A DNA stretch of 64,000 nucleotides from a virus. This document shows, one piece after another, positions 2,563 to 62,673 of the stretch (its first letter is position 1; each line of letters opens with the position of its first letter). The notes below the pieces were generated by a model. The model did not search any database. It was not told where the DNA came from and was given only the letters and a program-made list of their open reading frames with translations. The stretch lies in the IMG/VR virus record IMGVR_UViG_3300006076_000002, positions 28,859 through 92,858 of that record; one strand, 5' to 3'. A program made the translations under genes and the position numbers.

Positions 2563-2564
2563 CT

Positions 2565-3077
2565 ATGAGTATTTTACTAAAAGAAAAAATAGCAAAACAT
2601 AGAAATGGTAGGTATATAGGACTATATAAATGTGATTGTGGTAACGAATATACAGCAGTACAGACAAAATTCAATTCAGGGCATAATAAAGACTGTGGGT
2701 GTAGAATTAATGCAAAAAATAAAAAAGCCTCCCCTGAAGTATTAAGGTTAAAACAAATACGCAAAGGTATGCTGCAGAGATGTTACAATGAAAAAGCTGA
2801 ACACTACGACTGTTATGGTGGACGTGGAATAACTGTATGTAAAGAATGGGTAAACGATAAGGATACTTTTATAAAATGGGCGCTATCTAATGGGTATAAA
2901 ATAGACTTAAATGAAAAAGGTATCAATAAACTATCAATAGACCGTATAGACAATAATAAAGGATATTACTCTAGTAACTGTAGATGGGTAGATAAAAGTA
3001 CCCAAATGAAGAACAGAAGACCATATAGAGTAGGTAAACCTAAATTAACTATAGAATCATTTGACTGGGTAATATAA
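2565..3077 (+). CDS. free-standing HNH-type homing endonuclease
   Basis: CDCG, MLQRCYN, YGGRGITVC.EW, LSIDRIDNNKGY...NCRW motifs. Confidence 0.85.
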   Translation: MSILLKEKIAKHRNGRYIGLYKCDCGNEYTAVQTKFNSGHNKDCGCRINAKNKKASPEVLRLKQIRKGMLQRCYNEKAEHYDCYGGRGITVCKEWVNDKDTFIKWALSNGYKIDLNEKGINKLSIDRIDNNKGYYSSNCRWVDKSTQMKNRRPYRVGKPKLTIESFDWVI

Positions 3078-3089
3078 AGGAAATGTGAT

Positions 3090-9350: not shown

Positions 9351-9424
9351 GTACCATTAAGCTCAAAGGTAGAGCTCATTTCCTTTTAAGATTTGGGTTA
9401 CTGGTTCGACTCCAGTATGGTACT
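9351..9424 (+). tRNA. tRNA-Lys(UUU)-like gene, atypical
   Basis: Acceptor GTACCAT/ATGGTAC, D arm GCTC/GAGC, loop CTTTTAA, T arm ACTGG-TTCGACT-CCAGT; two U-U mismatches in the anticodon stem, no encoded CCA. Confidence 0.75.
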
Positions 9425-19311: not shown

Positions 19312-19488
19312 TTGACTTTAGAACAATTATTCTCGATTCTACGTAATCTTGAGGAACTAAAACTACAAGGCGGTAAACGCTATAAAGCAATTACCTTATT
19401 ATTGCAGAAGGAAGCTACAACACACAATTGTGCTGAAGCCAGAATTCTGCTAGATCAGCTACAGTCCTCTATGGATAGCCTCAACTAG
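19312..19488 (+). CDS. possible 58-aa protein (TTG start) overlapping the convergent gene end
   Basis: Open frame fills the gap; no clear RBS. Confidence 0.3.
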   Translation: MTLEQLFSILRNLEELKLQGGKRYKAITLLLQKEATTHNCAEARILLDQLQSSMDSLN

Positions 19489-22400
19489 TGGGATTTCTGT
19501 CCCACCATTAAGTAGACTGCCCAAACCGTGGAATGGATTAATTCTATTCCAGAATACAGAGAACAAGTTACTATCAAAGATATCCGATTCATCACCCAAC
19601 ACTGCTTGCTCTAATTTACTAGCTGCAACTCTTGCCGGTGATTCCTTCAGCATTTTAATATTAACTCTCTGTATATTTGCAAAATACGTCCAAAATGCTT
19701 CAGGACCCATTCTCTCTAACCATCTGACAGTTTTACTGTTTATAACTTTGCTATAGTTAATAAAGCTATCCGTAACAAACCTGAATACATCCTCCTCATT
19801 CTCACCTTTTTCCATCTTAGCCCAATACATAGCAGCTCTAAAGTGAAAGTCACTCTCTCTAGTAGCTCTCAACAAGAACTTACCTGCTGCACTTCTCTGA
19901 GTCAAGAACAACGTCTCAACTGCATCTCTAGCTAATCCTTCATCACCTGTAACCTTTTCAGATAATCCTCTCAATTTTTTACTAATTTTATTTGTATCAT
20001 CATATATTGCAACATCATCAATTACCGACTGGTACAAACCTTTAGCCATCAATGGTCTCAACGGATTATTATCCAACTTGTACTGCACATCTGATATGTT
20101 TCTCTCAAGATTAGCTTTTTTACTCCCACTAGCACCTTTAACCAATCTCTGCAATCTATGTAACTCCTCCTCATCTTTTTTCCAGGTATCTAATGATCTA
20201 ATACTTTTAATCATCAACGTAATTGCCTGTCTCACCGGCACTCCGCTATAAAACAGTATCCTCATATTCGACAGTATATTATTCCATATAGTACTAGGTA
20301 ATCTGACAACCACATTACCTTTGAGCAATCCTATGAAATCCTTCCAGTAACTTTCAACAACCTGTACTTTATATTTAGTTCCAACATCCACCTTATTAAA
20401 TATTTTCATATCTGTAATACTCGGCTCTTGATATCCGAATAACTGAGCTATCAAATCTTTACGTATATAAATCTCTCTCCTTGGATTGTCATCTACACTT
20501 TTAAGCTGTTCTTCCATTGTCATACGATATCTTTTATCTGTATCATGTATTCTCTTATACACCTCAGTACCAGGCTTTTTAGCATCTTCACGTATTTTAG
20601 CCTTATCTACTTCTATGTTATGCTTAATAATATTATCTCTGGCATCTGGCGGTAACAATCCCCATAGTTCCTCACCTTCAGTTTTAATCCCATATTTACC
20701 TTTATCCAGTAACTCTTTATTACCATTCTTATACATCTCACGTCTAGTCTCTTCACTTAAGTCAAAATCCTTAGCTCTTACGTGTATAAACAATCTCGAA
20801 GTATCTTTAGTTGGATCGTTAGACTTAATATAACTATCTGCATAATCCTTATACAATATCCTAAGTACCTTTTGATTCTCCTTATCTGTCATCGGTTGTG
20901 TGCCTACGTGTCCCTCACTCTTAGCCAACACTTCTGCACCTCTAGTATCTAATTCTAAATATCTAATTTTGTCTTTCTTGCTAATTCCGTACCTAAAATC
21001 TGTTATATACCCTTGATCATTGAACACTGGATGCATATTTCCTATATTTTCACCATCCATATATTTTTGCACTAATGCACTCCTACTTCTTATATACAAC
21101 TTCCATACAGCATCTTCAGTCAATCCTGGATTTGACATTCTTATCTTATCTCTAAGTAGCAGCCCTTGCACTTTTTCTCTCTGCAGACCTACCGAACCAT
21201 CTACACGTCCAGCTACCTGCAAGTTACTATTTACATACTTTCCGTACTGCACTGGATCAGCATCCTTCAAGTCTCTATCTAGCACTTCAACCAGTGTAAA
21301 CCCTAACTCATTCATCTTTTTCTTCTCAGATACCGGAGCTATCTGTAGTTCTCTATTCCTATTGTAAGTATCTCTCACCTGCCCTTTTACATAGCTTTGA
21401 GGTTCATACTTATCATACTCCTCTTTCACAGCTACCTGCAATCCTTTAGCGTACTCTGTATATGCCATAACCCCATCAGGATCTTTCTCCAGTAATTCCA
21501 GCATAGTATCTTTAGCTTTGTCATCTATATGTGTCAATGCGTACAACGATATCAGCTTATCCACATCTTTAACTAACTTCTCATCCACTTCTGTTTCCCA
21601 GTAAGGCTTCATCTCTATGTGTGTACCAAACCCTCTAACTATGTTCTCTGCATTGGTTCTCAACCCTACCCCAGTAACCGCATACTGAGCAGCTTTGTGT
21701 GCATCCTTAGTTATCGCTTTATACCAGAAGTCACTACCTTGCTTAGCTATTTTAGCCTCTAATTCTTTAATATCTTTCCCAGGATTAGTTATATACCCTT
21801 TTAAACCATATGCACTCTCAGCATCCAATGCCTGTAGATCTGCTGACATAATTACTGCTTCCAGTGCATGGTCATACTTCTTATTCTCTTTCTTAAGTAA
21901 ATCCACTTTCTTAAACATAGTCTTATACACATCTACCAGTGTACCTTCATAGTTCTGGTGTCTTAATCTATCTATGTGTGATCTAAACTCCATAGTTAAG
22001 TCGGTAACCAGCTCTAATGTCTTTCTACCTGCCGTAAAATCTGCAAACAACTTTCTCAAGAAGCTATCCTCTGCAATCTTCATAGCTGACAAATAGTTAC
22101 CCCATAGGATCGCTAGGTGTGGTCTCTGGTACTCATCTGCACCTTGTATAGCAGCTTTAAACTTAGGCAGTATTCTAGCTAACTTGATAAACTTGACCAG
22201 TATATTGTCACTGTCTTTAGGCCAATTATGCTTTATTGGATTATACAAATCATCAAACTCTTGTTGTGTCATACCTTGTTTAGTTACACCTAATGTATTC
22301 TGTAGTAAATCATCCACTCTACCCGATATTTTCTTATCTACTTCATCTAACACTTTATTCAATGTATCTGATACTTTTTCATCTGCATGCTTACCACGTC

Positions 22401-23679
22401 TCATTGCTGCTTCACTACCGTACTTATCCTTGATAGCCATCAACTTGTATATCGTTTTAACCGTCTCTTCTTCTACATTCTTACCCTTAGCACCTTTAAA
22501 CTTATGCACCACTTTAGCTAGAAAGTCAGCTATCATATGCACTACCTTATCATATGCACTTTTATATTCTTTCTCTTTCTTCTCTGTAGTTATACTTTCT
22601 AGTGCATTCTTCATCTGTTTATTCGTCATAGCATATGCCATAAACTCCTGCAATCTTACAGATGCTGCTCTAGTATCTTCTTTACCTTTTCTACCGAAGA
22701 TGTAATCATATCTATCTTTAGCAGCATCTTTCTCCGCTTCCGTATACAACCCATCCTTAACTAAATGTTCTGGTTTCAGAGTCTCTCTAGCCTTCTTATA
22801 CAGCTCTTGTATCTGTAACTTCAGTGCATCTGCTTCTGTACCTGCATGTTTATTGTCAAACACCCAATCCAATGCTGCATGTACTACTTCATGTACCAGT
22901 GTCTCCTCATTTGTCATAGTTAACCTATTTCTAGCTTCTTGACTTAATGTACCTGTCTTTATTTTTATCGGAGCTAGTGGGTCATTCTTATCAAACTGTC
23001 CGTAAGGCTCTACCACTTTAGCTATCTGTTCTGTATTCAGCTTAACTACTGTCTTACCCAGATCCTTACTCAGCTTCATCACATTGCTCAATACTTCATC
23101 TAAATGCTTCCCATGTTCACTGTCATACTCTTCACCCATCAGACTTTTATCTAGTCTTCTAAGCTCGTCTCTTACATTCAGTATCGTATTTTCTGTACTC
23201 TCTTCACCAAGAAACAGTCTATCTATATCCTCATCTGTGAGTTCATCTTTGTTGTACAGCACATCATTCACGTACCCTCGTTTAATTACCTCTGTAACCC
23301 CTGGCATCTCCACCACTGTTCCATTAGCTTTCGTAGCTATACTTTTCTCACTACCCCTCTCAAACGTGTACTGGTGATTGTTATCTAGCACAACTGTAGT
23401 CTTACCTGCTCTAGGCTTGTATATGACTTTCTTTATACCTAGTTTCTTACTCTCTCCACTCTTCAGTGGGTCCTTGTTGCTGTAGTGTACCCAGACATCC
23501 TTTGGCATGTTATCCTGTAGATATTTCTCTGTAGCCTTTTTACGTGACTGCCAGTATACCTTCTCAGCTGTAATCTGCTTAGTGAGAGCTTCTACTTCTC
23601 TCTCTAGCTCATCACCTTTATACTTACCTTCTAACTCTTCTCTTACTTTAGCTTCTATGCTTCTTGTATCACATGCCAT
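19459..23679 (-). CDS. virion RNA polymerase C-terminal portion encoded as a separate gene (zincin HExxH domain)
   Basis: ETLVHEVVHA and QEFMAYAMTN resemble the C-terminal region of N4-type vRNAPs; GGAG RBS and TAATG coupling; a single Cys (residue 3). Confidence 0.75.
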   Translation of the reverse strand: MACDTRSIEAKVREELEGKYKGDELEREVEALTKQITAEKVYWQSRKKATEKYLQDNMPKDVWVHYSNKDPLKSGESKKLGIKKVIYKPRAGKTTVVLDNNHQYTFERGSEKSIATKANGTVVEMPGVTEVIKRGYVNDVLYNKDELTDEDIDRLFLGEESTENTILNVRDELRRLDKSLMGEEYDSEHGKHLDEVLSNVMKLSKDLGKTVVKLNTEQIAKVVEPYGQFDKNDPLAPIKIKTGTLSQEARNRLTMTNEETLVHEVVHAALDWVFDNKHAGTEADALKLQIQELYKKARETLKPEHLVKDGLYTEAEKDAAKDRYDYIFGRKGKEDTRAASVRLQEFMAYAMTNKQMKNALESITTEKKEKEYKSAYDKVVHMIADFLAKVVHKFKGAKGKNVEEETVKTIYKLMAIKDKYGSEAAMRRGKHADEKVSDTLNKVLDEVDKKISGRVDDLLQNTLGVTKQGMTQQEFDDLYNPIKHNWPKDSDNILVKFIKLARILPKFKAAIQGADEYQRPHLAILWGNYLSAMKIAEDSFLRKLFADFTAGRKTLELVTDLTMEFRSHIDRLRHQNYEGTLVDVYKTMFKKVDLLKKENKKYDHALEAVIMSADLQALDAESAYGLKGYITNPGKDIKELEAKIAKQGSDFWYKAITKDAHKAAQYAVTGVGLRTNAENIVRGFGTHIEMKPYWETEVDEKLVKDVDKLISLYALTHIDDKAKDTMLELLEKDPDGVMAYTEYAKGLQVAVKEEYDKYEPQSYVKGQVRDTYNRNRELQIAPVSEKKKMNELGFTLVEVLDRDLKDADPVQYGKYVNSNLQVAGRVDGSVGLQREKVQGLLLRDKIRMSNPGLTEDAVWKLYIRSRSALVQKYMDGENIGNMHPVFNDQGYITDFRYGISKKDKIRYLELDTRGAEVLAKSEGHVGTQPMTDKENQKVLRILYKDYADSYIKSNDPTKDTSRLFIHVRAKDFDLSEETRREMYKNGNKELLDKGKYGIKTEGEELWGLLPPDARDNIIKHNIEVDKAKIREDAKKPGTEVYKRIHDTDKRYRMTMEEQLKSVDDNPRREIYIRKDLIAQLFGYQEPSITDMKIFNKVDVGTKYKVQVVESYWKDFIGLLKGNVVVRLPSTIWNNILSNMRILFYSGVPVRQAITLMIKSIRSLDTWKKDEEELHRLQRLVKGASGSKKANLERNISDVQYKLDNNPLRPLMAKGLYQSVIDDVAIYDDTNKISKKLRGLSEKVTGDEGLARDAVETLFLTQRSAAGKFLLRATRESDFHFRAAMYWAKMEKGENEEDVFRFVTDSFINYSKVINSKTVRWLERMGPEAFWTYFANIQRVNIKMLKESPARVAASKLEQAVLGDESDIFDSNLFSVFWNRINPFHGLGSLLNGGTEIPLVEAIHRGL

Positions 23680-26600
23680 TAGTCACACTCCAACTGATCT
23701 AGTATTTTATTTGCTATTATATCCATTTCTGGGTTAGTCTCTGCTTTAACCTCTTGCAAAGGTCTATTAGCTAACGGAGTATCAACCACCTCGTCGGGCT
23801 CAACACTATGATTTTCGTACACCAATTCTTTTGGTAATTTACTCTTATCTAGTTTATTCTTAGGCACTTTAGGTACGTATTCCTCTTTACCTTCAGCTCT
23901 ATACTCAGCACCATCTAATGCACTGTGTCCTACACTGAAGTCAGTCTCAAACAGCACTTTACGACCTTCTTCAGCTCTTTTCTGTAATTGTTCCATCTCT
24001 TTCACTGTACTTCTCATTGTAGGTAGATGTGTTATATCTCTCATTCTACCAACACTCATCATAGCTATCCTAGCATTATCACTCATATCCATTTCACTGA
24101 CTGTATTCAGGTACTCGTTGTAAGCATCGCTCAAATCACCATCAAGCTTACTCAGGAATGTTTTAACCGCAGCTAACACTTCATTTTGATTCTTACCTAT
24201 CTCAACTACTAATTCTTTCTGTTCTGCGTATGACAACCCGTCTAATGCTGTAGGTGCTTCACCTTGTATCATATCGTATATGTCACTTACCGGATTCGTA
24301 AGCATCTTTCTAACTACATTCAGTACAGACTCCATAGCCGTATCATCTTCTACTTTCTGTATGACTTCTTTATCTACACCATTCAACGTAGCATACAAGC
24401 TATCTAGCATCTCTGTAGTTAAACTCCAATCCTTGCTCAAATGATATGCAGACTTGTTGTAAGACTTAGTTACACCCATAGCTTTATCTACTGTAGCGAA
24501 GTTTGCATCATGCACTCCTAATGCTTCCCACTTAGCTAGCACTTCAGCTTGTATCGAAGCATCCTGTGCGTGTATCGGCATTACCGCTCCACTAGTAAAC
24601 GCAACTACCATCTTGTACAACTCACTGTTAGCTCTCAGCTTATCACCGTTAGCTCTCTCTATCTTACCCTGGAGGTTTATAGCAGTGTTCATAGTACCTT
24701 CTGTCCAATCACCTTTAGCAGTCTTGAACAGCACCATTTGATCCCCATTACCATTGTCTAATGCCATATTTATAATCGGTAAGATAACCTTATTAGCTTT
24801 GAGTATAGCATCCACTTCTTTAGTAGTTAACGGTACCCATTTACTTTTATGTTTACCCTCATTCTTCTTTTTAGTTTCTATATCTATTTGTTTATTCACT
24901 TCTTCTAATGCAATCTTACCTATCAACGCAATCGTACTATTCGTAGTTCTAGTAGCCTTAATCAATTCTCCATACTGTTCTTCAAATGTATCTCTAATCG
25001 GTTTACCAACCACTCTAGCTACATGCTCTTGTACCATCTCGTAGAAGTTATCCGGTATCTTCATGTTAAGCACATTCATCGGTGTTTTATCTAACTCTGC
25101 CCTCAACTTACCTAACCATGCATCTACAGCTTCACTTTGCTTATCGTAGTACATTTTCTTACCTGTAGACGGATCTACCATCAAATACGAAGATGCTTTT
25201 AATGCTCTCTTCATCAGGTCAAATGCACCCTCTACTTCACTTACTTTCTTAGATGTTGCCATCGTAGTCATTAACGCATTCAAGTTACTTTTAGAGGGAT
25301 ATGGTGTACCACTAGTAGATAATGCTCTCTTAGCTATACTATTGATAATACCTTTCATACCTGAACCGTAGTTAAGTACCATGAACGGATGTTTCATGAA
25401 TGCTCTAGATATTTCTTCTATCAGATGTTCTTCACCATCACGTGTACCTTCTCCAAGTAACTCCATAGCTACTTCCATACCTTGGAGTATACCTTTAGCT
25501 CTTTTCTCTATCTCTGCTTGCGTACCTTTAACTAAAGCTGGGTGTGGAACCGGTTTTCCTATGAAACTTGGTACCGGATCTACAAACTTTAATTCCGCTA
25601 ACCCTTTACTGTTATCGAGTACTACTCCTTTAATTTCACCCTTCACATTTATATTTACTTTTTTAGCGTTTTCCACTTTCTGCCTAAATAATTCAGCAGG
25701 TTCTTGGTATGCATCTCTCTTAGTCTTATCATCAGCTATTTCTGAATACTTTGGCACGTGTCCATCTTTTACTCTCATGAATCCACCACGCTCTAATTCT
25801 TCAAACGTTTTCTTCATGTCAAGTTTACCACCCTTCACGAATATTGGCATCTGTAGCATCTTGAGTATGTAACCGCTAGTTACTGCATCCGTCTCTAACA
25901 TGATCGTAGACATATATGCTTCATCACTAGCACTTTCTTTATGGTTCATGTACTTGAGTATTTCTATCATACCTTTTATACCATGCTCATCATGCACACC
26001 TAGCACATCCACTAACTCTTTCAGATCGTCATTTGTAATATCTTGTATTGTAGGTATCTTAGCATCACCAAACACTCCATTAACTTTAGCTTCTAACCCT
26101 GCATACTGTTTTATAGATTTACCCATAGGTAACTTATCTACATCAACACCTAGTGCTTGCCCGATAGCTAACTTTAATATCTTCTCTTCTGTACTACCTA
26201 GTTTAACTTCAGCTTTACCCATGTCTGTAGCAAATCTATGCAATAGTATTGATTGATGGTCAAATTTACCACCTATGATACCAAATCTAAAGTTTGTAAG
26301 TATTCTCCACTTCTGCCAGAATGGTTTCTTACCTTTATCTGTAGCTTCATACACTTCATCTAGTAGTTTCTTCTGTCTATCTATAGCGTCATTCTTACCT
26401 TTAGCACCTTCTCTTTCATTCACATATATCGTATCTGGGTCTACTTTACCTAATATCTTATCTAGCAGTGAGTATGGTACATCTTCTCCGTTCTCATCAT
26501 ATCCTGTAGTGTCTGCAATTCCATCTAGCTTATCTAACCCTGTCATGAAATCTTCACCGATAGTCAATCTTGTATCACTCTGCTTCTTAACTGCTTTAAC

Positions 26601-29600
26601 TCTAGGTTCCGACACTGAGAACAACTTAGACACACTTTGGTGTTCAGTAGGCGTATCCTCCATCTCATGCTTGTTATCTTCTGTGTATATACCCAATGAA
26701 TCCTCAGTAGGTTCTAATACCTTTTCTAAGTCTGTAGTCATACCTTTATGTGCTTTAATCAGATCTTTAGCTGTAGTTGTCAAATTGTATGTAACTATAT
26801 CTGGTTTACCTGCATCTTTATCATTCTCATATATCATTGCAGCTGGAGTCTTATACCCTTTCTTAAACACCATTTCTTTCTTAAGTTTTATATCTCTATC
26901 TTTAGCATTTAGTATTATATACTCAGCTTTCTCTAACGCTAACATACCTAGCATACCTAACTCTGCTTTTAGTTTCTGCTCTATATACTCAGTATCTAAC
27001 CCTTCTGGTGCATCCTTTACAGCTTTAAGTCCTAGTGCTTTCCAAGCCTTATTACCTATAGTACTTGACACATAATCCATTATTCCATCAAAGTCTTTGA
27101 TTGACATTCTATCAGTCTGGCTTACCGGAGCATTTTTATCCATACCCTTCAACGCTCTTACTGCATTGTTGTCTCTACGTTCTGAGTCAAACTTAGCCAT
27201 ACTATCTGTCAACACTTCTACTGCGCTTGTTGCCAATGCCTCAGCTACCTTACCGTTTAACTCTAGTTTACCTTTATTAGCGAACTCACCTTCAGGCACT
27301 GTATATGCCATTAGCATTCTACTTACACTTTGGAATCCTTCTACACTATCTGTACCAAACCACACCATGTTAGCTCTTGCAGATGATAAGTCATTCTCTA
27401 CTACACTTTGTACACTTCCTGTCAATTTCTTTATAGTTACACCTGCAGTAAGCAAGTTCTTCTGTGCTACACTTGACAGTGTTTCCTTTTTCTGTGCTAG
27501 TAACTCTCTTAGCACATCTAAAGCTGTAGCATTTAAATTCTTAGGCTCTGTAGCAGCTTTGAAGAACTCGTGTAAGTAACCTTTGCCGTATGCAACATCT
27601 ACACCATTTTTAGCTTCAGTAACGTGATGGGATTTATTGTCAGCAGTCCATGCAAGTATACTACTAGCTACTTTGTTATCTCTTTCAGCTGTTTTATCTA
27701 TCAGTTCAGATTTCTTTTCTTTGATTGCAGCTTTGGTGTCTTTTACCTTATTATTAACCTCTTGCATTTGTAATATACGCTTTATGGTTTTCTTTCTAGT
27801 TTCTGTTAATTTTCGTTCTTTGCCTTGTGTTTGGTCTTTTATGAAATCTTTTTTATATTCAAGCTCATCTTTTTTAGCTACCTTTTTGTCAATAGCCTGT
27901 TGTATACTACTTTCTACTTTTTTGTTGGTAGTTTCAGCTAGTTTATTATACAACGCATCAACACTGCTATCTATGCTTGCTATATAGCTATTTATACGCT
28001 TTATACTAGCATTAGACTTTTCTAACTGTTTAGCTGTCCACATCCTAGTTTGTATGGCATTTCTGAGTATATGTCTTTTAGTATTTTTAAAGTTATACCC
28101 ATCTGTCAGTTTATCTAGTGTGTTCTGTTTCTCGTATACTTCTTTTTCTAGCTCTTTAATTTCAACCTCTAAATTGGCTATTTCTTTATCTATACCTGTT
28201 AGCTCTTCTTGCTTAGGTTTTGTGCTCTCTGTATTGCCTTGTCCAGTACTTTGTTCTGTTCCTGTAGTAGTGCTTTTTTCTTCTGTAACAACTTTAGTTT
28301 CTTCATTTTGTTTTGCATCTATTTTTCCTTTATTTAGTAATCCTAATTTTTTAAGCGCAAATACATTTGCATCTTTTTCATATAATGCAGGATCAGCAGT
28401 ATATTTTTTTCTGAACTCTTCTTTTCCGTATTTGCCTATCTGTTGTGTATGTCGATACTCGTGTAATAACAGAAATTTACGTATATCTTGTGGGCTTAGC
28501 TTACTTATCGTATCTAAGAAGTCTATACTATAGTCTTTATTTATGCTATCTGTAACCTGTTGTTTAGTAAGTATAACCTCTTTAGACTTTTCGTCTTTAA
28601 ACTCTCTATGAGTACTTAAGTAATCTAATACCTTTTTTGCTGTAATGTTCTTACTGAGTCTAATTTTACTACCGTCAGAAGAGGTACCAGCCAACTGTCC
28701 ATTAGAAGCATCTGCCGAGTAGTATCTAATAGGTATACCAGCTACAGTAGCTGTCTGTACATTCGCATTTTTCTCTTTTACTGCACCTTCTACGACAGGT
28801 GCAGCTTCCTCAACCTTTTGCTGCGTAGTTTCAGCTTGTTGTGGCTTACCTACCTCTAGTGTACCGTTGATAGTGTCTGTAGCTAAACTGTTTATGTCTT
28901 GTAGTAACTTGTACTCTTTCTCTAATTTTGCTGTAAACCCTTCAGACTTTTTACCGTCATACACGTACTTACTTCCAGGATAGTTCACATCTACTTTTAG
29001 TTTAGCTAGGTCATTTTTAGCTTTATCTAACCCTGCAGCATCTTTACCTATAGCCTCTAAGTTTTTGATAGTTTCACGTAAGTTATCAGCCTTCTCTTTA
29101 TACACTCTTTGAGCAGCTTTAAATGCATCCCTCTTCTCTGCTTGAGTACTCATAAACTTATTCATAGCTATTATTGCACTATCTCTAGCTGTATCTGATT
29201 GAGCGTTTATGACTGCATCTAGGTGTTCTAGCATCCCTAGTTTTCGCTTACCTTTGTACTCTCCACCAAGCAGCTTTAACGCTAACGATTCATTCTTATT
29301 AGCTTTATCTACTACCGTAACCCCATTAAAGTCTTTACTATGTACCAGATCACTAACCAATTTCTCAGCTTTCAGTTTAGCTAACTCTTTTACCTTTTCA
29401 CTTTTAACAGTTTCATCTGTTATATCAGCTAACTCTGTCTGAACTTCTGCCATATCCTTAGCTATTTCTTTAGGGTCCCTATTCCCTAATATTTCTGATT
29501 CACCATTTAGTTTACGTCTAAGGTTCAGAGCATCTTGCAGATGTTTAGTAACTAACTCTTTTTCAGTTATTATCTCTGGAGTACTGTCTAATGAATCTAA

Positions 29601-31820
29601 TGTTGTTAAATGAGTCATTAAGTCATCTATATTTTTATTTAACCCAGGTTTACCATCTGAACTACCATTCAGTATAACCTTTTTCATAGCATCTTTAACT
29701 TTAACGTTCTTAGGATCATCAACCTTGCTAGCTATACTTTGAAACGTAGGTACATTTGTCATTGCTCTATTAGCGGCATCTCTACTAGCCGCTAGTTCTT
29801 CATCTGTAGTTACCTTGGCTTCTACCGGTTTACTACCTTTAGGTAATTTACTTTTTAAACTATTCACTGCGTTTGATAATTCTGCTACACCTTGAGTTGC
29901 ACCTGCAATGTGTCCACCTGCTAGCCCTTCTATACCAGCCACTTTAGCATCTAATTGATTCTTCTCATTAGCTATTATGCTTTGTAGGTCATCACCTTTC
30001 TTACCAGTATCCCACTGTTTACCTAGTATGTCTGCCCACTGTTGTAAGTACTCTTCAGTACCTTCTACTGCCATACCCTTACCGCCTGCAGCTGCCATCC
30101 TACCTGCTGACTTTAGTACTGAATGCCATAATTTATCAGTTGCTTTCTTACCTAGTACGCTAACTGAGTCTTTCAATGCTACTTTAATCGGTTTAGTGAT
30201 TACCATTGCACTCTCTAACCCTATGTAAGTCTGTAATGCTGCTGATATACTAGCTAATGCAATGTCTTCTCCTCCAGTGTGTTTCTGCCCTTCAGCTTCA
30301 TTTCTAGCTGCTAAGGTATCATTAGCTATTCCAGTGAACATCGCAGTAGCACCGGCTCTCTCTATTCCTTTAGCTAGTACTTTCTGAGCCATGTTTAGCT
30401 TGTTATTAGCAGCAGCAGTCAACTTCTCTGCTTGCACTACCTTACCAGCTTTCATTAACTGTGCAGCTTTCTCATATGCCTTACCTATTTTACTGCCATT
30501 CTTAACTACCATCATGCCAGCTTTTGCTTCACCAGCCCCTATCATGAATGTACCAACGCTACCAACTACGTTACCCACGATGTTACCACTACGCATTGCA
30601 TGCCATGCAGCCATCCCGTAGTTACCTTTCTTTATGTCATCCTCTACTTGTGCTTGTTCTCTTTGTGCTTGATCAGTGTTAACTCCGTATGTTGCATCTG
30701 CCATCTGACCTATGTTCTCGTTCGTGTAGTACTCTTTCGTATCGTTGTACCCATCACCACCTAACCAACTAGCTACTCCATTCATCTTGAAACTGTGGGC
30801 TATGGCATCTTTCTTCTCTGCTTCTAGTTTAGCTCTTTCTTCTTTACTTGTGGCATTAGCTATTTGATGGTCATAGTAAGCTTCTTCTGCTTTACCTATC
30901 AACCAGTCAGGTGCGTCATTAGCTACTGCATCTATTGCCTGACCTATTGTACTAGTAACTGTACTTGCAGTTCCTTTAGCGACCCCTTCTAGGAATCCTT
31001 GATCACCAAATTTAGCTTTGTTTAATGCAGCTAGTAATGCTTCTCCATTATCTACCGGTTGTATTTCACCTTTATTACCGAATGAGTCTTCGTATGCGAA
31101 TCTTCCACCTGTATTAACTTGGTTATCATTATGCATTACCGCATTTATGTCTACCCCTTCTTTATTCGCTAAGTATCCTAGTTCACGTGACATATTCGAT
31201 TTTTGTACACCTTTTACCTTTACTGGTATATTCATGCCATTGCCGCCACTGTAGGCATTTTTACTTAAGTCCGTCCTAGCTCCCGGTATGTATGGTGCTT
31301 CCCAGTCACTATTACCATTTACTATATCAGCTAGTTGCTGTATCTTATTCATGTTAGCTACATCTAGCATGTCTTGCTCAGTAATGTTAGCTGCAGTCTT
31401 GTGTGCATTTGGATTGTTTTGGTTTATTACGTCAGCAACGCCTTGTCTTTGTGCATCCATTGATAGTGCACTTTTACTGTATTTGTATTTTTCTGGTTGG
31501 TTACGCTTTAAGCTGGGTTCTACTCCATACATATCGTATGGACGATTACCGTGTAAGGTCTCTACTGCATCTATTCCAGCAGTTCTGTATGTGGATTCTT
31601 TACCTGTTGTAGGATCGATTGTAGTGAATCCATCACCGTCATCCCCTGTGTATTTGAGTATGGCATCACTGTAAGTACTAAGTCTATCTCCTGATAGTTT
31701 GTTAATCTTATCTTGTGCTCTTTGCTGTAAGTTGTCTACTTTAGTATTAGTTGAATTCGACCCAAATGCTGCTATGTTTTCCGCTATGTTTTCTGCTGGG
31801 TCTTGTAGGTATTGAGGCAT
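23679..31820 (-). CDS. giant virion-encapsidated single-subunit RNA polymerase (N4 gp50-like), N-terminal and catalytic portion
   Basis: Motif A LETDAVTSG, motif B RAFMKHPFMVLNYGSG, motif C GVHDA; 2713 aa; a single Cys (penultimate residue); N4 synteny. Confidence 0.88.
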   Translation of the reverse strand: MPQYLQDPAENIAENIAAFGSNSTNTKVDNLQQRAQDKINKLSGDRLSTYSDAILKYTGDDGDGFTTIDPTTGKESTYRTAGIDAVETLHGNRPYDMYGVEPSLKRNQPEKYKYSKSALSMDAQRQGVADVINQNNPNAHKTAANITEQDMLDVANMNKIQQLADIVNGNSDWEAPYIPGARTDLSKNAYSGGNGMNIPVKVKGVQKSNMSRELGYLANKEGVDINAVMHNDNQVNTGGRFAYEDSFGNKGEIQPVDNGEALLAALNKAKFGDQGFLEGVAKGTASTVTSTIGQAIDAVANDAPDWLIGKAEEAYYDHQIANATSKEERAKLEAEKKDAIAHSFKMNGVASWLGGDGYNDTKEYYTNENIGQMADATYGVNTDQAQREQAQVEDDIKKGNYGMAAWHAMRSGNIVGNVVGSVGTFMIGAGEAKAGMMVVKNGSKIGKAYEKAAQLMKAGKVVQAEKLTAAANNKLNMAQKVLAKGIERAGATAMFTGIANDTLAARNEAEGQKHTGGEDIALASISAALQTYIGLESAMVITKPIKVALKDSVSVLGKKATDKLWHSVLKSAGRMAAAGGKGMAVEGTEEYLQQWADILGKQWDTGKKGDDLQSIIANEKNQLDAKVAGIEGLAGGHIAGATQGVAELSNAVNSLKSKLPKGSKPVEAKVTTDEELAASRDAANRAMTNVPTFQSIASKVDDPKNVKVKDAMKKVILNGSSDGKPGLNKNIDDLMTHLTTLDSLDSTPEIITEKELVTKHLQDALNLRRKLNGESEILGNRDPKEIAKDMAEVQTELADITDETVKSEKVKELAKLKAEKLVSDLVHSKDFNGVTVVDKANKNESLALKLLGGEYKGKRKLGMLEHLDAVINAQSDTARDSAIIAMNKFMSTQAEKRDAFKAAQRVYKEKADNLRETIKNLEAIGKDAAGLDKAKNDLAKLKVDVNYPGSKYVYDGKKSEGFTAKLEKEYKLLQDINSLATDTINGTLEVGKPQQAETTQQKVEEAAPVVEGAVKEKNANVQTATVAGIPIRYYSADASNGQLAGTSSDGSKIRLSKNITAKKVLDYLSTHREFKDEKSKEVILTKQQVTDSINKDYSIDFLDTISKLSPQDIRKFLLLHEYRHTQQIGKYGKEEFRKKYTADPALYEKDANVFALKKLGLLNKGKIDAKQNEETKVVTEEKSTTTGTEQSTGQGNTESTKPKQEELTGIDKEIANLEVEIKELEKEVYEKQNTLDKLTDGYNFKNTKRHILRNAIQTRMWTAKQLEKSNASIKRINSYIASIDSSVDALYNKLAETTNKKVESSIQQAIDKKVAKKDELEYKKDFIKDQTQGKERKLTETRKKTIKRILQMQEVNNKVKDTKAAIKEKKSELIDKTAERDNKVASSILAWTADNKSHHVTEAKNGVDVAYGKGYLHEFFKAATEPKNLNATALDVLRELLAQKKETLSSVAQKNLLTAGVTIKKLTGSVQSVVENDLSSARANMVWFGTDSVEGFQSVSRMLMAYTVPEGEFANKGKLELNGKVAEALATSAVEVLTDSMAKFDSERRDNNAVRALKGMDKNAPVSQTDRMSIKDFDGIMDYVSSTIGNKAWKALGLKAVKDAPEGLDTEYIEQKLKAELGMLGMLALEKAEYIILNAKDRDIKLKKEMVFKKGYKTPAAMIYENDKDAGKPDIVTYNLTTTAKDLIKAHKGMTTDLEKVLEPTEDSLGIYTEDNKHEMEDTPTEHQSVSKLFSVSEPRVKAVKKQSDTRLTIGEDFMTGLDKLDGIADTTGYDENGEDVPYSLLDKILGKVDPDTIYVNEREGAKGKNDAIDRQKKLLDEVYEATDKGKKPFWQKWRILTNFRFGIIGGKFDHQSILLHRFATDMGKAEVKLGSTEEKILKLAIGQALGVDVDKLPMGKSIKQYAGLEAKVNGVFGDAKIPTIQDITNDDLKELVDVLGVHDEHGIKGMIEILKYMNHKESASDEAYMSTIMLETDAVTSGYILKMLQMPIFVKGGKLDMKKTFEELERGGFMRVKDGHVPKYSEIADDKTKRDAYQEPAELFRQKVENAKKVNINVKGEIKGVVLDNSKGLAELKFVDPVPSFIGKPVPHPALVKGTQAEIEKRAKGILQGMEVAMELLGEGTRDGEEHLIEEISRAFMKHPFMVLNYGSGMKGIINSIAKRALSTSGTPYPSKSNLNALMTTMATSKKVSEVEGAFDLMKRALKASSYLMVDPSTGKKMYYDKQSEAVDAWLGKLRAELDKTPMNVLNMKIPDNFYEMVQEHVARVVGKPIRDTFEEQYGELIKATRTTNSTIALIGKIALEEVNKQIDIETKKKNEGKHKSKWVPLTTKEVDAILKANKVILPIINMALDNGNGDQMVLFKTAKGDWTEGTMNTAINLQGKIERANGDKLRANSELYKMVVAFTSGAVMPIHAQDASIQAEVLAKWEALGVHDANFATVDKAMGVTKSYNKSAYHLSKDWSLTTEMLDSLYATLNGVDKEVIQKVEDDTAMESVLNVVRKMLTNPVSDIYDMIQGEAPTALDGLSYAEQKELVVEIGKNQNEVLAAVKTFLSKLDGDLSDAYNEYLNTVSEMDMSDNARIAMMSVGRMRDITHLPTMRSTVKEMEQLQKRAEEGRKVLFETDFSVGHSALDGAEYRAEGKEEYVPKVPKNKLDKSKLPKELVYENHSVEPDEVVDTPLANRPLQEVKAETNPEMDIIANKILDQLECD

Positions 31821-58239: not shown

Positions 58240-58880
58240 TATTCAAATCCTTTAGTTTTAATTCTATCATACATCTCTACAGATTCCGTTGAAAACATAC
58301 CATCCATTTCAATGCGTTTAACACTCAGCTCGAATCGCTGGTAGTGTGTGTTACTTTCTGCTTGTATATTTCCATTTACGCTTCCATGACCTCTGTACCC
58401 TATATAGTTCAACAATGCTTCTAGCATCTGATCAGGTATAGGCAATCGTTCATCCAACGTCTCCATAGTAACTAACGTGGGGCTAGCTACATACACTAAT
58501 GAGTATATATCACCTACTTCGATGTTATCTATCTGCACTGTGTCATATCCAATTGTATTAACTGAATTAGCTACTTCATCGCTGTTTATTTCTAGAAACT
58601 CTACATGAGAAGGATCAGTCATATCATACTGTGTTAAATCTTTAATCTTAACTTTATAGTGATATGCAGCTAATAACCACATGTAATCTGCAGGCATCTT
58701 ATATTTATCCACATTAGCAATACCTTCAATCAGGTACTCTTTAGTCTCGATAGGGAATCTTTTATATAATTCAATTAACCCTAAATTGATAAACCCTATT
58801 ACGGCATTAATATCATCTTTAACGGCAATTGTCTTTAGTTCACCATTCTGTGCTAGCGCTATCACTTCATTAGCTGTCAT
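58239..58880 (-). CDS. head-tail adaptor (N4 gp67-like)
   Basis: GELK...INLGLIELYKRF...EALLNYIGYR...KGF; directly after TerL. Confidence 0.75.
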   Translation of the reverse strand: MTANEVIALAQNGELKTIAVKDDINAVIGFINLGLIELYKRFPIETKEYLIEGIANVDKYKMPADYMWLLAAYHYKVKIKDLTQYDMTDPSHVEFLEINSDEVANSVNTIGYDTVQIDNIEVGDIYSLVYVASPTLVTMETLDERLPIPDQMLEALLNYIGYRGHGSVNGNIQAESNTHYQRFELSVKRIEMDGMFSTESVEMYDRIKTKGFE

Positions 58881-58904
58881 ACCATCCCCTAATCTATTTT
58901 ACGT

Positions 58905-58926
58905 ATTATACCATAATTCTACTAAA
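58905..58926 (-). promoter_or_regulatory. promoter TTTAGT-N10-TATAAT (TGn extended -10)
   Basis: Variant of window-wide motif. Confidence 0.5.
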
Positions 58927-61828
58927 ATATTAAACTACTATTGTAATCCTCATCATCGTCATCCTCACTAAAATCTTCACCCCATACACCGGACACTTTT
59001 GGTAGTGCATCAACATTAGGTGCACTATTGGAAGGGTTTATGTAATCTATCAAAGCTAGCTGTGACATACAATCTAAGAAGTCATCATGAAGAGAATTAT
59101 GAATAACTACCCCATTTTCTACAGTAAAATTATTAGCCTTATCTACAGATAAATCATATACTAACTCTCTCTTTCTCTTCACTATTTTTACGATCGAAAC
59201 GCTTACGACACCTAGTTCCGCAGAATCTTGATTCAACATCAACTTTTGTATAATAGGTTCCTCCACATTCTTCACATCTATGTTCATATTTCTGTTTACT
59301 TCTATTTGTTTTTGCACATTCTTCACTGCAGAACTTTCGTTTACTGTTTTTGAAGATTTCATAGCCTGTTCCACACTCCAAACACTTTCGTATTTCCAAT
59401 TTTGACCTACTTCGTTGGTACTCATGCTGTTTGTAGCACTCTGTTGAACAAGTCTTTTGATTTGGTGCCTTTTGCTTGAATTCATTACTACATATAATAC
59501 AAGTTTCCACACCCAAAGGTTTATAGTCTGGATTAACTCTTTTATTTCTATCACGCTCTCTGCACTGTGATGAGCAGAATTTTGTACCATCTTTGTCTGT
59601 GTCTTTGAGTGTAAACTCTTTTTCACACCAAACACAAACCCTCTTCTTATTTCCTTTAAGTCTTGTACGACGTTTCCTAATACCTTCATACTCCCCAGCT
59701 TTAGCTTGTTTAGCCAATTTACATAGCTTTTCTTGTTCTTCTGGAGTTCTGTTGTAGTAGTGCCTGTCTTCATCGTTTGCGTGATGCTCTTGGTGAGCAG
59801 AGCGTGATAATAATTCAAGATTATTTGGGCTGTTATCTTCCTTGTTATGGTTCTTGTGGTGAACATCCATACCTTTAGGTATATCCCCTTTAGTTTGTTT
59901 ATAGACGTATCTGTGTAACCAATCCCTACTCGCTCCAATCTTGGTTGTAGATTGATAATACCCTGACTTTTTTCTTGTCCATTTGTATCCACCGTATTCA
60001 ATTTGTTCCATGTTATATCTCCAGTTACTAATTTATCTGATACACCTAAATCACACACCTTCTTATACCCTGTTGTAGTAAGCACTTTGTGTTCTGCTGT
60101 TAAGTGCATTACACCAGTTTCAGTGTATATACTATACGTATCTTTTATACCTGTAAGTATAACATCAGTAACCTTAAAGTTTGCTACGTATCCTTGGTAT
60201 TGGGACACTACATTATCACCTATCCTTACATCTCTAATACTGATAAGTCCTTTATCTGTGAACACTTTAGTATCTGCTGATACACATCCCACTCCGGACC
60301 TACTCGTCTTTCTTATCTCCTCTAACGCTTCTTTCATAGCAGGACTATCTTCTAACTCTTTAGGGAATTTTATCTTATTTAGTTCGAAGTCAGGAAGCAC
60401 TCCTCTTAACCTCTCCATTTTATTCCCTTGACCCTTACTACGTATACCCACTTGGTTAGGGGATTTACCCTTCTGTCTTGCATACCTAAACCATATGTTC
60501 TTCTCAATCATCATAGCATCTAATCTGTTTATGTTTAACTGCTGTTGTCCATCTATTTCTATTCCTACCTCTAAGCTAGCTCCTTTACTACCCCATCGAC
60601 TAACTAGTTTAAACAGTGCTTCATACTGCTCCTGAATTGTACATTGTTCTAGAAACAAATCTATCAGGTATTTATCATCATTAGCGTTTATCGCCCATAC
60701 CGCTATACCACTATAGTCACCCTTCTTAGTGTTACCCGCTGTAAAGTCGGTAGTGATAACTATGGAGAAGTTCTGTATGTTCTTAACTATTAAGCTACGA
60801 GTATCATACCAACTGAGCATATATTCAGGTATTAATCTCTCAGCCTCTGAACTAATTTGTAACATTCGCTCTTGCTGAAAACTTTGTAATTCACCACTTT
60901 GTACTGCAGACTGGTATTGCTTAAGTATAGATTCAGGAGTATGCATAGCAGGCCACATGCTTTTTATGTCTTTTACTTTAGTGTCTTTATCTATATGTTC
61001 ACATATTGGAAATAACATAGGAGTATATACTCCACCAACCAACATAGACCATACTATATCACTTTCTGTAAAAGGTGTAGCTACTGATATTACATAGTTA
61101 TCTGTACCTGCTTCTAAAGCATTTAAGATATCACTGTATACTATAGTTTTTAATTGGTCCATTATAGTCTCTGAGTAAGCAGCTGCACTTGATGGGATTA
61201 TGTCATCTAGCAAGAATGCAGAAGGTCTTCTACCGTAACTGTCTCGAATACCACGGATACCACCAGACCATCCGACGTTACGCATTAGAAATGTCCTATC
61301 CGCTTTGGATCCTGGACCTTTACGTACTAATTCTATTTCCGTTTCAGTTGTTCTAATCTCTTCAAAGTAATTCTGACAAAATATGCTTTCATTGACCATG
61401 GAACCTAAAGTTTTACTTATAACCCTTGCTCCCCCTTGAGCCGAAGCACTGACAGAAGTTATAAAAGGTATTTTCTTACCGTTAGGCATACCTCCTTTGA
61501 TAGCTAAGTACAAAGGAAGGAAAGCGGTAAGTAAAGTAGATTTTGCACCACCACGGGAAGCTACAACAGCTATTCTGTGAGGGTCTACATTAATAGTGCT
61601 CTGCACTTCTTTAGAGTACGGGAACTGCTCTGCTTTAACTTTACCAAATACTACATCAATAGCGAAGTAATGCCAAGTAGGGGTAGTTACTAGAAAATCC
61701 TGACCATATACAAGCCTCATTAAGTTAAAAAACTCTAGAGACTCTTCACTGGGGGTGTATCCTGGAAAATCATAGTTTATTGTTTTTAGTGCTTCATCAG
61801 CATTAAATTTTTCCTTTAAATTACCCAT
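58922..61828 (-). CDS. terL: terminase large subunit precursor containing an intein (spliced product ~571 aa)
   Basis: Walker A SRGGAKST, Walker B FLLDD, nuclease TTDF...DYS and HDDFLD motifs. Confidence 0.93.
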   Translation of the reverse strand: MGNLKEKFNADEALKTINYDFPGYTPSEESLEFFNLMRLVYGQDFLVTTPTWHYFAIDVVFGKVKAEQFPYSKEVQSTINVDPHRIAVVASRGGAKSTLLTAFLPLYLAIKGGMPNGKKIPFITSVSASAQGGARVISKTLGSMVNESIFCQNYFEEIRTTETEIELVRKGPGSKADRTFLMRNVGWSGGIRGIRDSYGRRPSAFLLDDIIPSSAAAYSETIMDQLKTIVYSDILNALEAGTDNYVISVATPFTESDIVWSMLVGGVYTPMLFPICEHIDKDTKVKDIKSMWPAMHTPESILKQYQSAVQSGELQSFQQERMLQISSEAERLIPEYMLSWYDTRSLIVKNIQNFSIVITTDFTAGNTKKGDYSGIAVWAINANDDKYLIDLFLEQCTIQEQYEALFKLVSRWGSKGASLEVGIEIDGQQQLNINRLDAMMIEKNIWFRYARQKGKSPNQVGIRSKGQGNKMERLRGVLPDFELNKIKFPKELEDSPAMKEALEEIRKTSRSGVGCVSADTKVFTDKGLISIRDVRIGDNVVSQYQGYVANFKVTDVILTGIKDTYSIYTETGVMHLTAEHKVLTTTGYKKVCDLGVSDKLVTGDITWNKLNTVDTNGQEKSQGIINLQPRLERVGIGYTDTSINKLKGIYLKVWMFTTRTITRKITAQIILNYYHALLTKSITQTMKTGTTTTELQKNKKSYVNWLNKLKLGSMKVLGNVVQDLKEIRRGFVFGVKKSLHSKTQTKMVQNSAHHSAESVIEIKELIQTINLWVWKLVLYVVMNSSKRHQIKRLVQQSATNSMSTNEVGQNWKYESVWSVEQAMKSSKTVNESSAVKNVQKQIEVNRNMNIDVKNVEEPIIQKLMLNQDSAELGVVSVSIVKIVKRKRELVYDLSVDKANNFTVENGVVIHNSLHDDFLDCMSQLALIDYINPSNSAPNVDALPKVSGVWGEDFSEDDDDEDYNSSLIF
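59096..60286 (-). mobile_element. intein, 397 aa (Cys515-Asn911 of the precursor)
   Basis: Block A CVSADTKVFTDKG, block B LTAEHKVLT, block F VYDLSVDKANNF, block G VVIHN|S. Confidence 0.93.
59154..60011 (-). CDS. HNH endonuclease with four CxxC...C(S/G)xxC zinc fingers, nested out of frame in the intein
   Basis: WLHRYVY...IPKGMDVHHKNHNKEDNSPNNLELL...H; own RBS GGAG-N7-ATG and own TGA. Confidence 0.88.
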   Translation of the reverse strand: MEQIEYGGYKWTRKKSGYYQSTTKIGASRDWLHRYVYKQTKGDIPKGMDVHHKNHNKEDNSPNNLELLSRSAHQEHHANDEDRHYYNRTPEEQEKLCKLAKQAKAGEYEGIRKRRTRLKGNKKRVCVWCEKEFTLKDTDKDGTKFCSSQCRERDRNKRVNPDYKPLGVETCIICSNEFKQKAPNQKTCSTECYKQHEYQRSRSKLEIRKCLECGTGYEIFKNSKRKFCSEECAKTNRSKQKYEHRCEECGGTYYTKVDVESRFCGTRCRKRFDRKNSEEKERVSI

Positions 61829-61830
61829 AC

Positions 61831-62673
61831 TTATTCCTCTATCTCAGCGTCTACTGCATCACTGTTTAAGTTAATACCAATTTTCTGCACTGTAGAGATA
61901 TCTTCTCCTGCATCTAATCTAGCTTTCTGCATCTTAACTAGTTGGGCTAACTGCATATTCATTTCTTGTTGCATGCTAACCTCTTCCTCACTCTTACTTA
62001 CTGTCAGATCTATCTTAGCTGTCTCTGGCATCTTAGTAGCTTCTAGTAATGCCTTTGCAGCCAAATGCTGAACCATAGGGGAGCAAGTCATAGGCTCCCC
62101 ATTAGCGTTAGGTGCTGCTCTACCATTCATTAAGTCATACTGCTTCTTTATAGCTGCATGCTGATAACTAGCATACTGAATATGGAACGGTATCAGCATC
62201 TCTTTGTCTATCTCTTGAACTAACTTAGTACTGTTATACATAGCTACGTGATTAGCTATCTGCTTACCTTCCTCAACCAGTTTATCATATCTATCAGGAA
62301 ATACTATCTTCCACGCATCCTCATTAGTATGATTCCTCTTCAGGTTACAGAACTTAACTGCATTAATCAATTCAGTGACACTAGTTCTAGGAGCTTTCTT
62401 GAGTATATACATATAACTCATCACTTCCTCTTCAAGCAGCTCCTGTGGTAGCCCTGTGTCACTTTCCATGTTATCTACTAGTTCTAGTATCTCATCTGTG
62501 ATATTATGTTTACTTCCCTTCGGTAGCAATCCTTCTAACCTACTCTTAGTTATCTTTCCTGGTCTGCGCTTACCTAATGCTCTATTCGAACTGCTAGGTT
62601 TAGCTGCTCGCTTCTTATCGAATGTAGCTTCCTTAGCTCTGACCTCTGTCATGTTTGGTTTTCTTCTCGCCAT
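61831..62673 (-). CDS. putative terminase small subunit (N4 gp69-like)
   Basis: Directly upstream of TerL; INAVKFC, FPDRY, YNSTKLV, SPMVQ. Confidence 0.7.
   Translation of the reverse strand: MARRKPNMTEVRAKEATFDKKRAAKPSSSNRALGKRRPGKITKSRLEGLLPKGSKHNITDEILELVDNMESDTGLPQELLEEEVMSYMYILKKAPRTSVTELINAVKFCNLKRNHTNEDAWKIVFPDRYDKLVEEGKQIANHVAMYNSTKLVQEIDKEMLIPFHIQYASYQHAAIKKQYDLMNGRAAPNANGEPMTCSPMVQHLAAKALLEATKMPETAKIDLTVSKSEEEVSMQQEMNMQLAQLVKMQKARLDAGEDISTVQKIGINLNSDAVDAEIEE

Follow-up and report, generated by a model that had tools for sequence, protein, structure and literature searches.

The stretch of viral DNA analysed here, hereafter the window, comprises 64,000 nucleotides (positions 28,859 to 92,858 of the IMG/VR virus record IMGVR_UViG_3300006076_000002) and contains, on its minus strand, a gene for the large subunit of the phage terminase (terL) that is interrupted by an intein, and, within the DNA of this intein and in another reading frame, a complete gene for an HNH homing endonuclease. 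The open reading frame (ORF) of the terL precursor (58922..61828; all features of this locus lie on the minus strand) codes for 968 amino acids, intein included, and its product matches the terminase large subunit family phrog_38 of PHROGs (5.9e-47). The N-extein (60287..61828; residues 1-514, ending in SGVG) was delimited by alignment with the intein-less relatives P0002 and P0004 and by an intein-less contig of the sequencing run X4, and the C-extein (58922..59095; residues 912-968 plus the stop codon, beginning with SLHDD) by alignment with intein-less relatives. Between them lies a class-1 intein of 397 amino acids (59096..60286), which starts with Cys1, ends in His-Asn and is followed by Ser+1, its boundaries being those of the intein-less allele. 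Its excision would release a predicted TerL of 571 amino acids. The HDD motif that the insertion immediately precedes has a well-established role in the nuclease domain of terminases.

The Pfam profile Intein_splicing is recognised in the terL product at residues 545-911 (3.1e-9; 37.3 bits against a cut-off of 35.8). In an alignment of 21 inteins, the first cysteine (C1, Cys515 of terL), H66 of block B and the terminal N397 are invariant, and the +1 residue following the terminal Asn is Cys, Ser or Thr, the window reading IHN|S. An AlphaFold model built on this alignment resolves the intein into three parts. The N-terminal half of the HINT splicing domain (60017..60286; intein residues 1-90, with blocks A and B) and its C-terminal half (59096..59206; residues 361-397, with blocks F and G, conserved Y377 and N397, ending in HN) are modelled with a predicted local distance difference test score (pLDDT) of 88-96 and 91-96, respectively, and together these confident parts superimpose on the NpuDnaB mini-intein 4o1r (Z 20.4, root mean square deviation of 1.6 Å over 131 residues), with two natural split inteins, gp41-1 (Z 19.6) and NrdJ-1 (Z 19.4), next among the structural matches. 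The 270 residues in between (59207..60016; intein residues 91-360) form a stop-free spacer with neither conserved sequence nor confident fold (pLDDT 34-70), giving only generic matches to long helices (Z <= 7.3).

This anatomy bears on whether the insert is removed at all. It could be argued that the 397 residues stay in TerL as a tolerated loop, as has been proposed for an insert in the DNA methylase of phage ShiLan; inserts of this type, devoid of splicing domains, do exist (PMC11855218), and two of the metagenome loci described below, L095 and L099, resemble them. However, the window insert stands directly before the conserved SLHDD of the nuclease domain, it retains every class-1 splicing residue, conserved among its relatives, and its two halves are modelled as a complete HINT fold, so that we consider a non-splicing insert very improbable.

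The nested gene (59154..60011) encodes a protein of 285 amino acids, and its start lies 1817 nt (3n+2) downstream of the terL start, that is, in the +2 (equivalent to -1) frame of terL. Its ATG is preceded, 7 nt upstream, by a Shine-Dalgarno-like GGAG (60019..60022), and comparable GAGG or AGGA motifs precede the HNH start in the related loci L006, L007 and L002. At the other end, the last ~18 codons overlap the C-terminal splicing half, the TGA stop (59156..59154) arising from the codons for Tyr and Asp in block F of the intein. The product is assigned to HNH_3 (PF13392; 4e-15, 55.6 bits against a cut-off of 24.8) by Pfam and to HNH endonucleases by PHROGs. The beta-beta-alpha-metal catalytic core, defined by the Pfam match (59790..59921; residues 31-74), includes V50, H51, H52, K57, N64 and H73, all of them invariant among 27 relatives. 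It is followed by four tandem zinc-ribbon modules (59202..59636; residues 126-270), presumably a DNA-binding array, recognised by their Cys pairs in a CxxC...CxxxC pattern and by weak treble-clef and zinc-finger matches. The number of modules varies from 2 to 4 among the relatives; in the first two of them, the Cys ligands vary little or not at all across the same 27 sequences. The HNH frame is modelled by AlphaFold with a mean pLDDT of 90.9. Its best relative of solved structure is I-HmuI (1u3e), with a profile E value of 5.6e-4 and a Foldseek probability of 1.00 (E 7.8e-3, TM score 0.21-0.33); no structure of the PDB matched the model at E <= 0.001 in Foldseek. Thus, the original prediction, made from the sequence alone, was right in placing a terL intein with blocks A, B, F and G directly before SLHDD, in reading its middle as motif-less, and in assigning to the -1 frame an HNH domain with four zinc fingers, its own GGAG and ATG, and its own TGA inside block F.

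Several searches around the nested gene gave negative results. The RNA around the HNH start is unstructured (z = +1.31), with no hairpin masking the ribosome site of the kind described for mobE, and no group I intron or other RNA family was found by Rfam over 58700..62000 at E <= 1. A programmed -1 frameshift joining the N-terminal intein half to the HNH protein was also considered and discarded, since the 7 codons that stay open ahead of the ATG contain, on informal inspection by eye, no slippery heptamer.

The open part of the HNH frame extends no further than 60032..59157, with dense stops on both sides, and the frame is closed 7 codons before the ATG. Across the HNH gene there are no stops in the terL frame and 44 in the third frame. 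When the HNH protein was kept fixed and its synonymous codons were redrawn from the codon usage of the window, the expectation was 10.3-10.5 terL-frame stops, and a stop-free sequence never came up in 5000 redraws; when the gene's own synonymous codons were permuted, the mean was 5.7 stops and the minimum 2, again with no stop-free outcome in 2000 trials. The open terL frame is therefore not a product of chance. The codons by which stops are avoided can be seen directly: among the HNH codons of the form NTN standing before a purine, none of 22 is NTA, against 46% in the long ORFs of the window; the 8 NTA codons present all precede a pyrimidine; and the 7 NTG codons are all followed by G, never by A. 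The same depletion is found in relatives, with 0 host-frame stops against 6.3 expected in L006 and 0 against 8.4 in L007 (0 against 10.3 in the window), whereas the third frame is not depleted in any of the three (observed/expected 44/44 in the window, 26/28 in L006 and 31/27 in L007). Two of the predicted traits, frames jointly open for ~860 nt and the avoidance of NTA before purines, are thus borne out.

These data also decide whether the layout could be an artefact, in which an HNH domain truly in frame with the intein had been displaced by two compensating sequencing or assembly indels, one of the outcomes that the original prediction had named as refuting it. The contig is, indeed, a metagenome assembly, and the only run found to be identical (X1) is probably the same data set. 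Nevertheless, the early closure of the HNH frame and the dense stops beyond both ends leave no in-frame continuation, a stop-free terL frame over 285 codons would go unexplained, the separate Logan assembly of X1, the probable source run, shows 0 gaps and no difference over 58900..60400, and the same +2 nesting is found in independent contigs and in three sequenced isolates. An artefact of this kind is, in our judgement, next to impossible.

To determine what is conserved in each frame, the nucleotides of 11 members of the N4-like group were threaded on alignments of their HNH proteins, taken two at a time (55 pairs). Amino-acid identity averaged 37% for the HNH frame, as against 20% for the host frame and 21% for the third. 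The spacer peptide is thus kept no better than a noncoding frame, and the absence of stops is the only constraint detectable on it. Consistent with this, the identity between the window and P0003 is 68% and 67% in the two splicing halves and 56% and 50% in the exteins, falling to 36% in the spacer. As read from the stop counts and these comparisons, stops are selected against in no frame but that of terL, and amino-acid selection is confined to the HNH frame.

The conservation of the HNH frame also weighs on the idea that the nested gene is a relic, that is, that an HNH gene invaded the intein long ago and is now silent or decaying, the element being inherited vertically with only the terL frame under selection. 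Such a history would agree with the inefficiency of internal initiation within a translated gene, with the existence of fractured and degraded versions, and with the many non-synonymous HNH changes seen in the partial comparison with contig X2, discussed below; the translation of the HNH protein is, besides, something that we infer. Against it, identity in the HNH frame is, over the 55 pairs, almost double that in either of the other two, the catalytic and zinc ligands are invariant, the ORF is intact and equipped with a Shine-Dalgarno motif and an ATG, with a model pLDDT of 91, and the intein is missing from the closest terL relatives and from the allele of a sister sample, which fits recent gain or loss. 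On balance, a relic seems unlikely.

The presence of the element is polymorphic. In the sister-sample run X4, an intein-less contig reads SGVG-S(LHDD), with positions 59095 and 60287 joined exactly, which confirms the boundaries of the intein and demonstrates alleles with and without it. Similarly, the intein-less terL relatives P0002 and P0004 (569-576 amino acids; 84-89% overall identity) read ...G[IV]G-SLHDD, and theirs are the closest exteins of all (90% identity over the N-extein for P0002, and 85% for P0004). In P0003, which bears the intein, the splicing halves are, conversely, nearer to those of the window (68% and 67%) than the exteins are (56% and 50%), as befits a mobile element. 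The polymorphism and the patchy distribution of the element support homing indirectly. From another study, the 1245-nt contig X2 carries the whole element, 87% identical over 59071..60286, with no indels other than a -1/+1 pair, separated by 3 nt, that leaves both frames intact. Taking into account that the 24 bases past 60286 in this contig encode KVSRSGIG, the end of the N-extein in P0002, this copy occupies the same insertion site, in a terL that has diverged. The X2 element contig shows a word depth of 66, compared with ~3 for the neighbouring terL contigs of that run; its carrier there may be a phage of much higher abundance, or several phages.

The absence of the element from close relatives is pertinent to a further proposal, namely that the nested HNH protein works with the terminase rather than in homing. 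Small HNH proteins encoded beside the terminase genes of cos phages act in packaging, according to Kala et al. 2014 as cited in PMC4422536, a similar idea was raised in that brucellaphage paper, and the gene lies inside terL in many phages. However, the element is dispensable, because terL relatives at 84-90% identity lack it; an I-HmuI-like HNH_3 domain with a DNA-binding array of zinc ribbons is the build of a homing endonuclease; and the same nuclease family occurs in a DNA methylase gene and as free-standing genes. A packaging helper is accordingly a highly improbable explanation.

The arrangement recurs in other genomes. The intein-bearing terL proteins P0003, P0006 and P0013 are of the same length as that of the window, with equally featureless middles, and the DNA available for P0013 (L007, L025) contains a 272-amino-acid HNH ORF in the +2 frame. 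The IMG/VR contig L006 has a 211-amino-acid HNH ORF in the +2 frame of its second intein, within an open terL frame of 1185 amino acids, and the truncated locus L005 has the same start. For P0003, P0006, P0026 and P0067, available as protein only, decoding also yielded an HNH in the +2 frame (scores of 58-278, against 20-27 for controls). Among cultured phages, a +2 nesting is found in the annotated terL of Acinetobacter phage Highwayman, Tetrasphaera phage TJE1 and Clostridium phage phiCDHM19, each with 0 terL-frame stops and HNH_3 in the hidden frame; in all three records the nested gene is unannotated. HNH_3 is the only Pfam call for the window protein and five relatives, including that of the actinophage TJE1, and the nuclease family also occurs in phages of Proteobacteria and Firmicutes.

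A scan of metagenomes with the HNH alignment provided 80 loci, which were sorted by a script using hidden Markov models of the two intein halves. Dual-coded inteins with an open host frame in the HNH+1 position account for 32 of the 80; in 7, both intein halves lie in the HNH+1 frame with stops between them, and in 4 the gene is fractured with the halves in other frames; an intein part shares the frame of the HNH in 2; and the remaining 35, which include two DNA-methylase genes with a hidden HNH, show no intein beside the nuclease. Intein_splicing was matched in 20 of 21 sampled host ORFs, many of them with Terminase_3, Terminase_6N or Terminase_6C, the exception being the methylase of L095. 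The layout for which the original prediction proposed searching in other inteins is therefore present in numerous independent genomes. Other queries found less: blastn of terL against the phage collection gave no match, a single-protein HNH scan of IMG/VR gave none either, although the alignment query did find relatives, and a search of IMG/VR with P0003 returned only distant, intein-less terL genes.

In every member of the nuclease family examined, the host frame is HNH+1. This is probably because only that frame can be cleared of stops by synonymous choice: about 6-10 stops, avoidable at NTA and NTG codons, would have to be removed from it, compared with 26-44 in the other frame.

Related HNH-bearing inteins are inserted at three points within ~6 residues of the HDD motif (terL residues ~511-520): before SLHDD in the window, P0003 and P0013; after HDD in L006 and L005; and after HDDA in the Vibrio phages described next, P0006 and L023. 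In addition, terL of L006 (1281-4838) and of L002 (233-3112) is interrupted a second time, at the ATPase P-loop (after GLGK/GGAK), by a canonical LAGLIDADG intein.

Among database entries, the nearest relatives of the window HNH (43-45% identity) belong to Vibrio phages 1.238.A/B and 1.245.O (Schitoviridae, Pariacacavirus), at the neighbouring site HDDA|C, and there terL is fractured. In 1.238.A (L002, 233-3964; NC_055735) and 1.245.O (L003; NC_055736), the N-terminal part of terL, carrying the N-terminal intein half, stops 114 nt into the HNH gene, which lies in the +2 frame; the terL frame reopens 62 nt ahead of the HNH stop, in phase with the N-terminal part, and this portion is annotated separately as a 'hint domain' gene. 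Across the HNH gene, the terL frame of L002 contains 14 stops against 9.6 expected, without any depletion. L023 is fractured similarly, but its host frame is open again over the last 125 HNH codons. By contrast, terL of the window is unbroken and is not a fractured gene, a form that is present in L002, L003, L023 and 11 of the 80 survey loci. These fractured Vibrio loci constitute a natural control, in which, judging from the stop counts, the avoidance of stops vanishes where terL need not be read through. Since the Vibrio phages are viable in culture, the two halves presumably trans-splice or assemble; a literature search of incomplete coverage found no paper on trans-splicing of the Vibrio terL halves. 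Four human gut metagenome contigs of 57-103 kb (L035, L037, L039 and L041), from another habitat, are of the fractured type as well, with intein halves flanking an HNH relative in the HNH+1 frame and 9-10 stops between them.

The kind of layout found in the window is already known. The original prediction was not aware of any description of it, and on this point it does not stand: a paper of 2015 describes it in brucellaphages (PMC4422536), and a preprint of 2025 in actinophage inteins (Gosselin et al., bioRxiv 10.1101/2025.01.02.630785). Its central idea, a composite of a mini-intein and a sheltered endonuclease, is nevertheless supported by the anatomy, the conservation of the HNH frame, the folds and the recurrence. 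As in the actinophage inteins, terL being among their hosts, the window has its splicing blocks set apart by a complete endonuclease ORF, which runs on the same strand in reading frame 3 (+2), within an open host frame; the in-frame middle has no recognisable fold, a confident one being obtained only in the shifted reading (pLDDT 90.9 versus 34-70); the nuclease core is N-terminal in the hidden protein; and the origin proposed is the invasion of an intein by a free-standing endonuclease. Gosselin et al. also describe antisense LAGLIDADG and Vsr-like genes. Unlike their type D, which is Endonuclease VII-like (Endonuclease_7), the window nuclease is HNH_3 (I-HmuI-like), from a family with 2-4 zinc ribbons; moreover, its host is a marine N4-like phage, the site is the HDD motif of the nuclease domain, and the family has fractured derivatives.

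Both HNH_3 and Endonuclease VII types have a beta-beta-alpha-metal core, so a distant relation between them is possible.

Brucellaphages Tb and Pr (NC_019446 gp07/gp08; PMC4422536) likewise have a terL intein with a separately annotated HNH gene on the same strand and out of frame: in Tb, terL (2347..4893) is annotated 'intein present', and gp08, the HNH, lies at 3170..3856. That nuclease differs from the one in the window in that it is assigned to Pfam HNH (PF01844), its zinc ribbons preceding the catalytic motif, which occupies residues 150-189; it is in the +1 frame relative to terL, and the insertion is in the ATPase part, instead of the +2 frame and the HDD site; and only the zinc ribbons align with the window family (hhalign probability of 86%).

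The ShiLan element (Arsenault et al., Genes 2025, PMC11855218) shares the hidden out-of-frame HNH and an insert that keeps the host frame open. However, it lies in a phage DNA methylase, without splicing domains, and its HNH begins with GTG and has no detectable ribosome-binding site, leaderless initiation having been proposed, whereas the window has a full intein, a Shine-Dalgarno-like GGAG and an ATG. It is L095 (2336-3955) and L099 that resemble ShiLan; both are N6_N4_Mtase genes with a hidden HNH relative, the host frame being HNH+1 with 0 stops, and no intein halves.

The fractured genes of Dassa et al. (NAR 2009, PMC2677866) have the order N-extein with N-intein, endonuclease, and C-intein with C-extein, and in them the 3' end of the endonuclease gene overlaps the downstream intein part by 6-69 bp. 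Vibrio phages 1.238.A and 1.245.O and L023 have exactly this form, including the overlap with the downstream intein half. The window shares the order of parts and the 3' overlap, and differs in its unbroken host frame and contiguous intein, and the endonucleases of Dassa et al. are GIY-YIG or Vsr-like, not HNH. I-HmuI itself (PDB 1u3e) is an HNH nicking homing endonuclease of a group I intron in a Bacillus phage and has different DNA-binding modules; in the window protein, a zinc-ribbon array is C-terminal, and the carrier is an intein.

What the locus adds to this known kind is a member with an HNH_3/I-HmuI-like nuclease, in an N4-like marine phage and at the nuclease HDD site. The breadth of the nuclease family over contiguous, fractured and in-frame states, and the fractured terL of cultured Vibrio phages, may be new; neither was found in the literature search, although its coverage was incomplete and absence is therefore unproven. 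Since the kind of layout is already published, the finding adds breadth and a natural control, and not a new principle.

We put at roughly 0.8 the probability that the locus is a composite selfish element in the terL of an N4-like phage, made up of an intein with a stop-free spacer and a separate, out-of-frame HNH gene. The element consists of a class-1 intein located directly before SLHDD, with splicing halves of ~90 and 37 residues, whose ~270-residue spacer need only stay free of stops; the spacer DNA, read in the +2 frame, encodes the I-HmuI-like HNH_3 with its four zinc ribbons, equipped with a GGAG and an ATG of its own. Ribosomes would read terL through the spacer, the HINT halves would fold together, and the intein would splice out to give the 571-amino-acid TerL; splicing would be needed because the insert directly precedes the conserved SLHDD motif. 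A minority of ribosomes would start internally on the same late mRNA, producing the HNH protein at a low level, and a low output is probable because elongating ribosomes cross the internal start site. The HNH protein would then cut or nick an intein-less terL near GVG|SLHDD during co-infection, and repair would copy the element in (homing). The most likely origin is the invasion of a mini-intein by a free-standing HNH gene, and the accumulation of stops in the host frame would turn terL into a fractured gene like that of Vibrio phages 1.238.A and 1.245.O.

Several observations weigh against this proposal. Translation of the HNH protein, splicing with a 270-residue spacer and cleavage of the intein-less allele are steps that we infer, and the sequencing runs containing the stretch are of DNA only, as contigs. 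Of the 173 differences from the X2 copy, the 40 that were compared, all in the 3' third of the gene, comprise 12 synonymous and 15 non-synonymous changes in HNH codons, and 10 synonymous and 20 non-synonymous ones in the terL frame, so that the excess in favour of the HNH frame is modest; as far as this comparison goes, constraint in the 3' third of the HNH gene appears mixed. The Foldseek match of the HNH model to I-HmuI is weak by its E value, despite a probability of 1.00. Finally, sigma-70-like sites are no commoner than in shuffled sequences, with none just 5' of the HNH start, in a scan that excludes N4-like promoters.

With regard to its source, the window comes from a 92,858-bp IMG/VR viral contig that has direct terminal repeats and a completeness rating of 100%, and its GC (guanine plus cytosine) content is 36%. 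The full stretch was found in one run only, a hydrothermal-vent metagenome. The phage is N4-like by gene content, with matches of two neighbouring ORFs to phrog_2206, the family of the virion RNA polymerase, and with a portal, a DNA polymerase and a terL similar to their Schitoviridae counterparts. This N4-type polymerase is split over two abutting minus-strand ORFs (window positions 19459..23679 and 23679..31820; 1406 and 2713 amino acids, respectively) instead of forming one giant gene. There is also one tRNA-Lys gene with anticodon UUU (9351..9424, plus strand).

In addition to its relevance for this phage, the finding has practical and evolutionary implications. Gene callers miss an ORF that lies wholly within another one of the same strand. 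With this layout, the dosage of the nuclease would no longer depend on splicing, and the locus illustrates the extent to which a stop-free spacer may be tolerated at the endonuclease insertion site of the HINT domain, which is useful for intein engineering. According to the models of Dassa and Gosselin, free-standing endonucleases invade mini-inteins, the outcome being a split or a canonical intein; one nuclease family with contiguous (32), fractured (11) and in-frame (2) loci makes these models testable in cultured phages. It is conceivable, though we hold it only tentatively, that the I-HmuI-like nucleases combining HNH_3 and zinc ribbons are a lineage specialised in living inside inteins, in the only frame that can be held open by the choice of synonymous codons, the contiguous copies being living intermediates toward natural split inteins and the fractured Vibrio terL a recent derivative. 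Were this so, the halves of the Vibrio TerL would need trans-splicing for DNA packaging, and the series from contiguous to fractured to in-frame elements would be traceable within one nuclease family.

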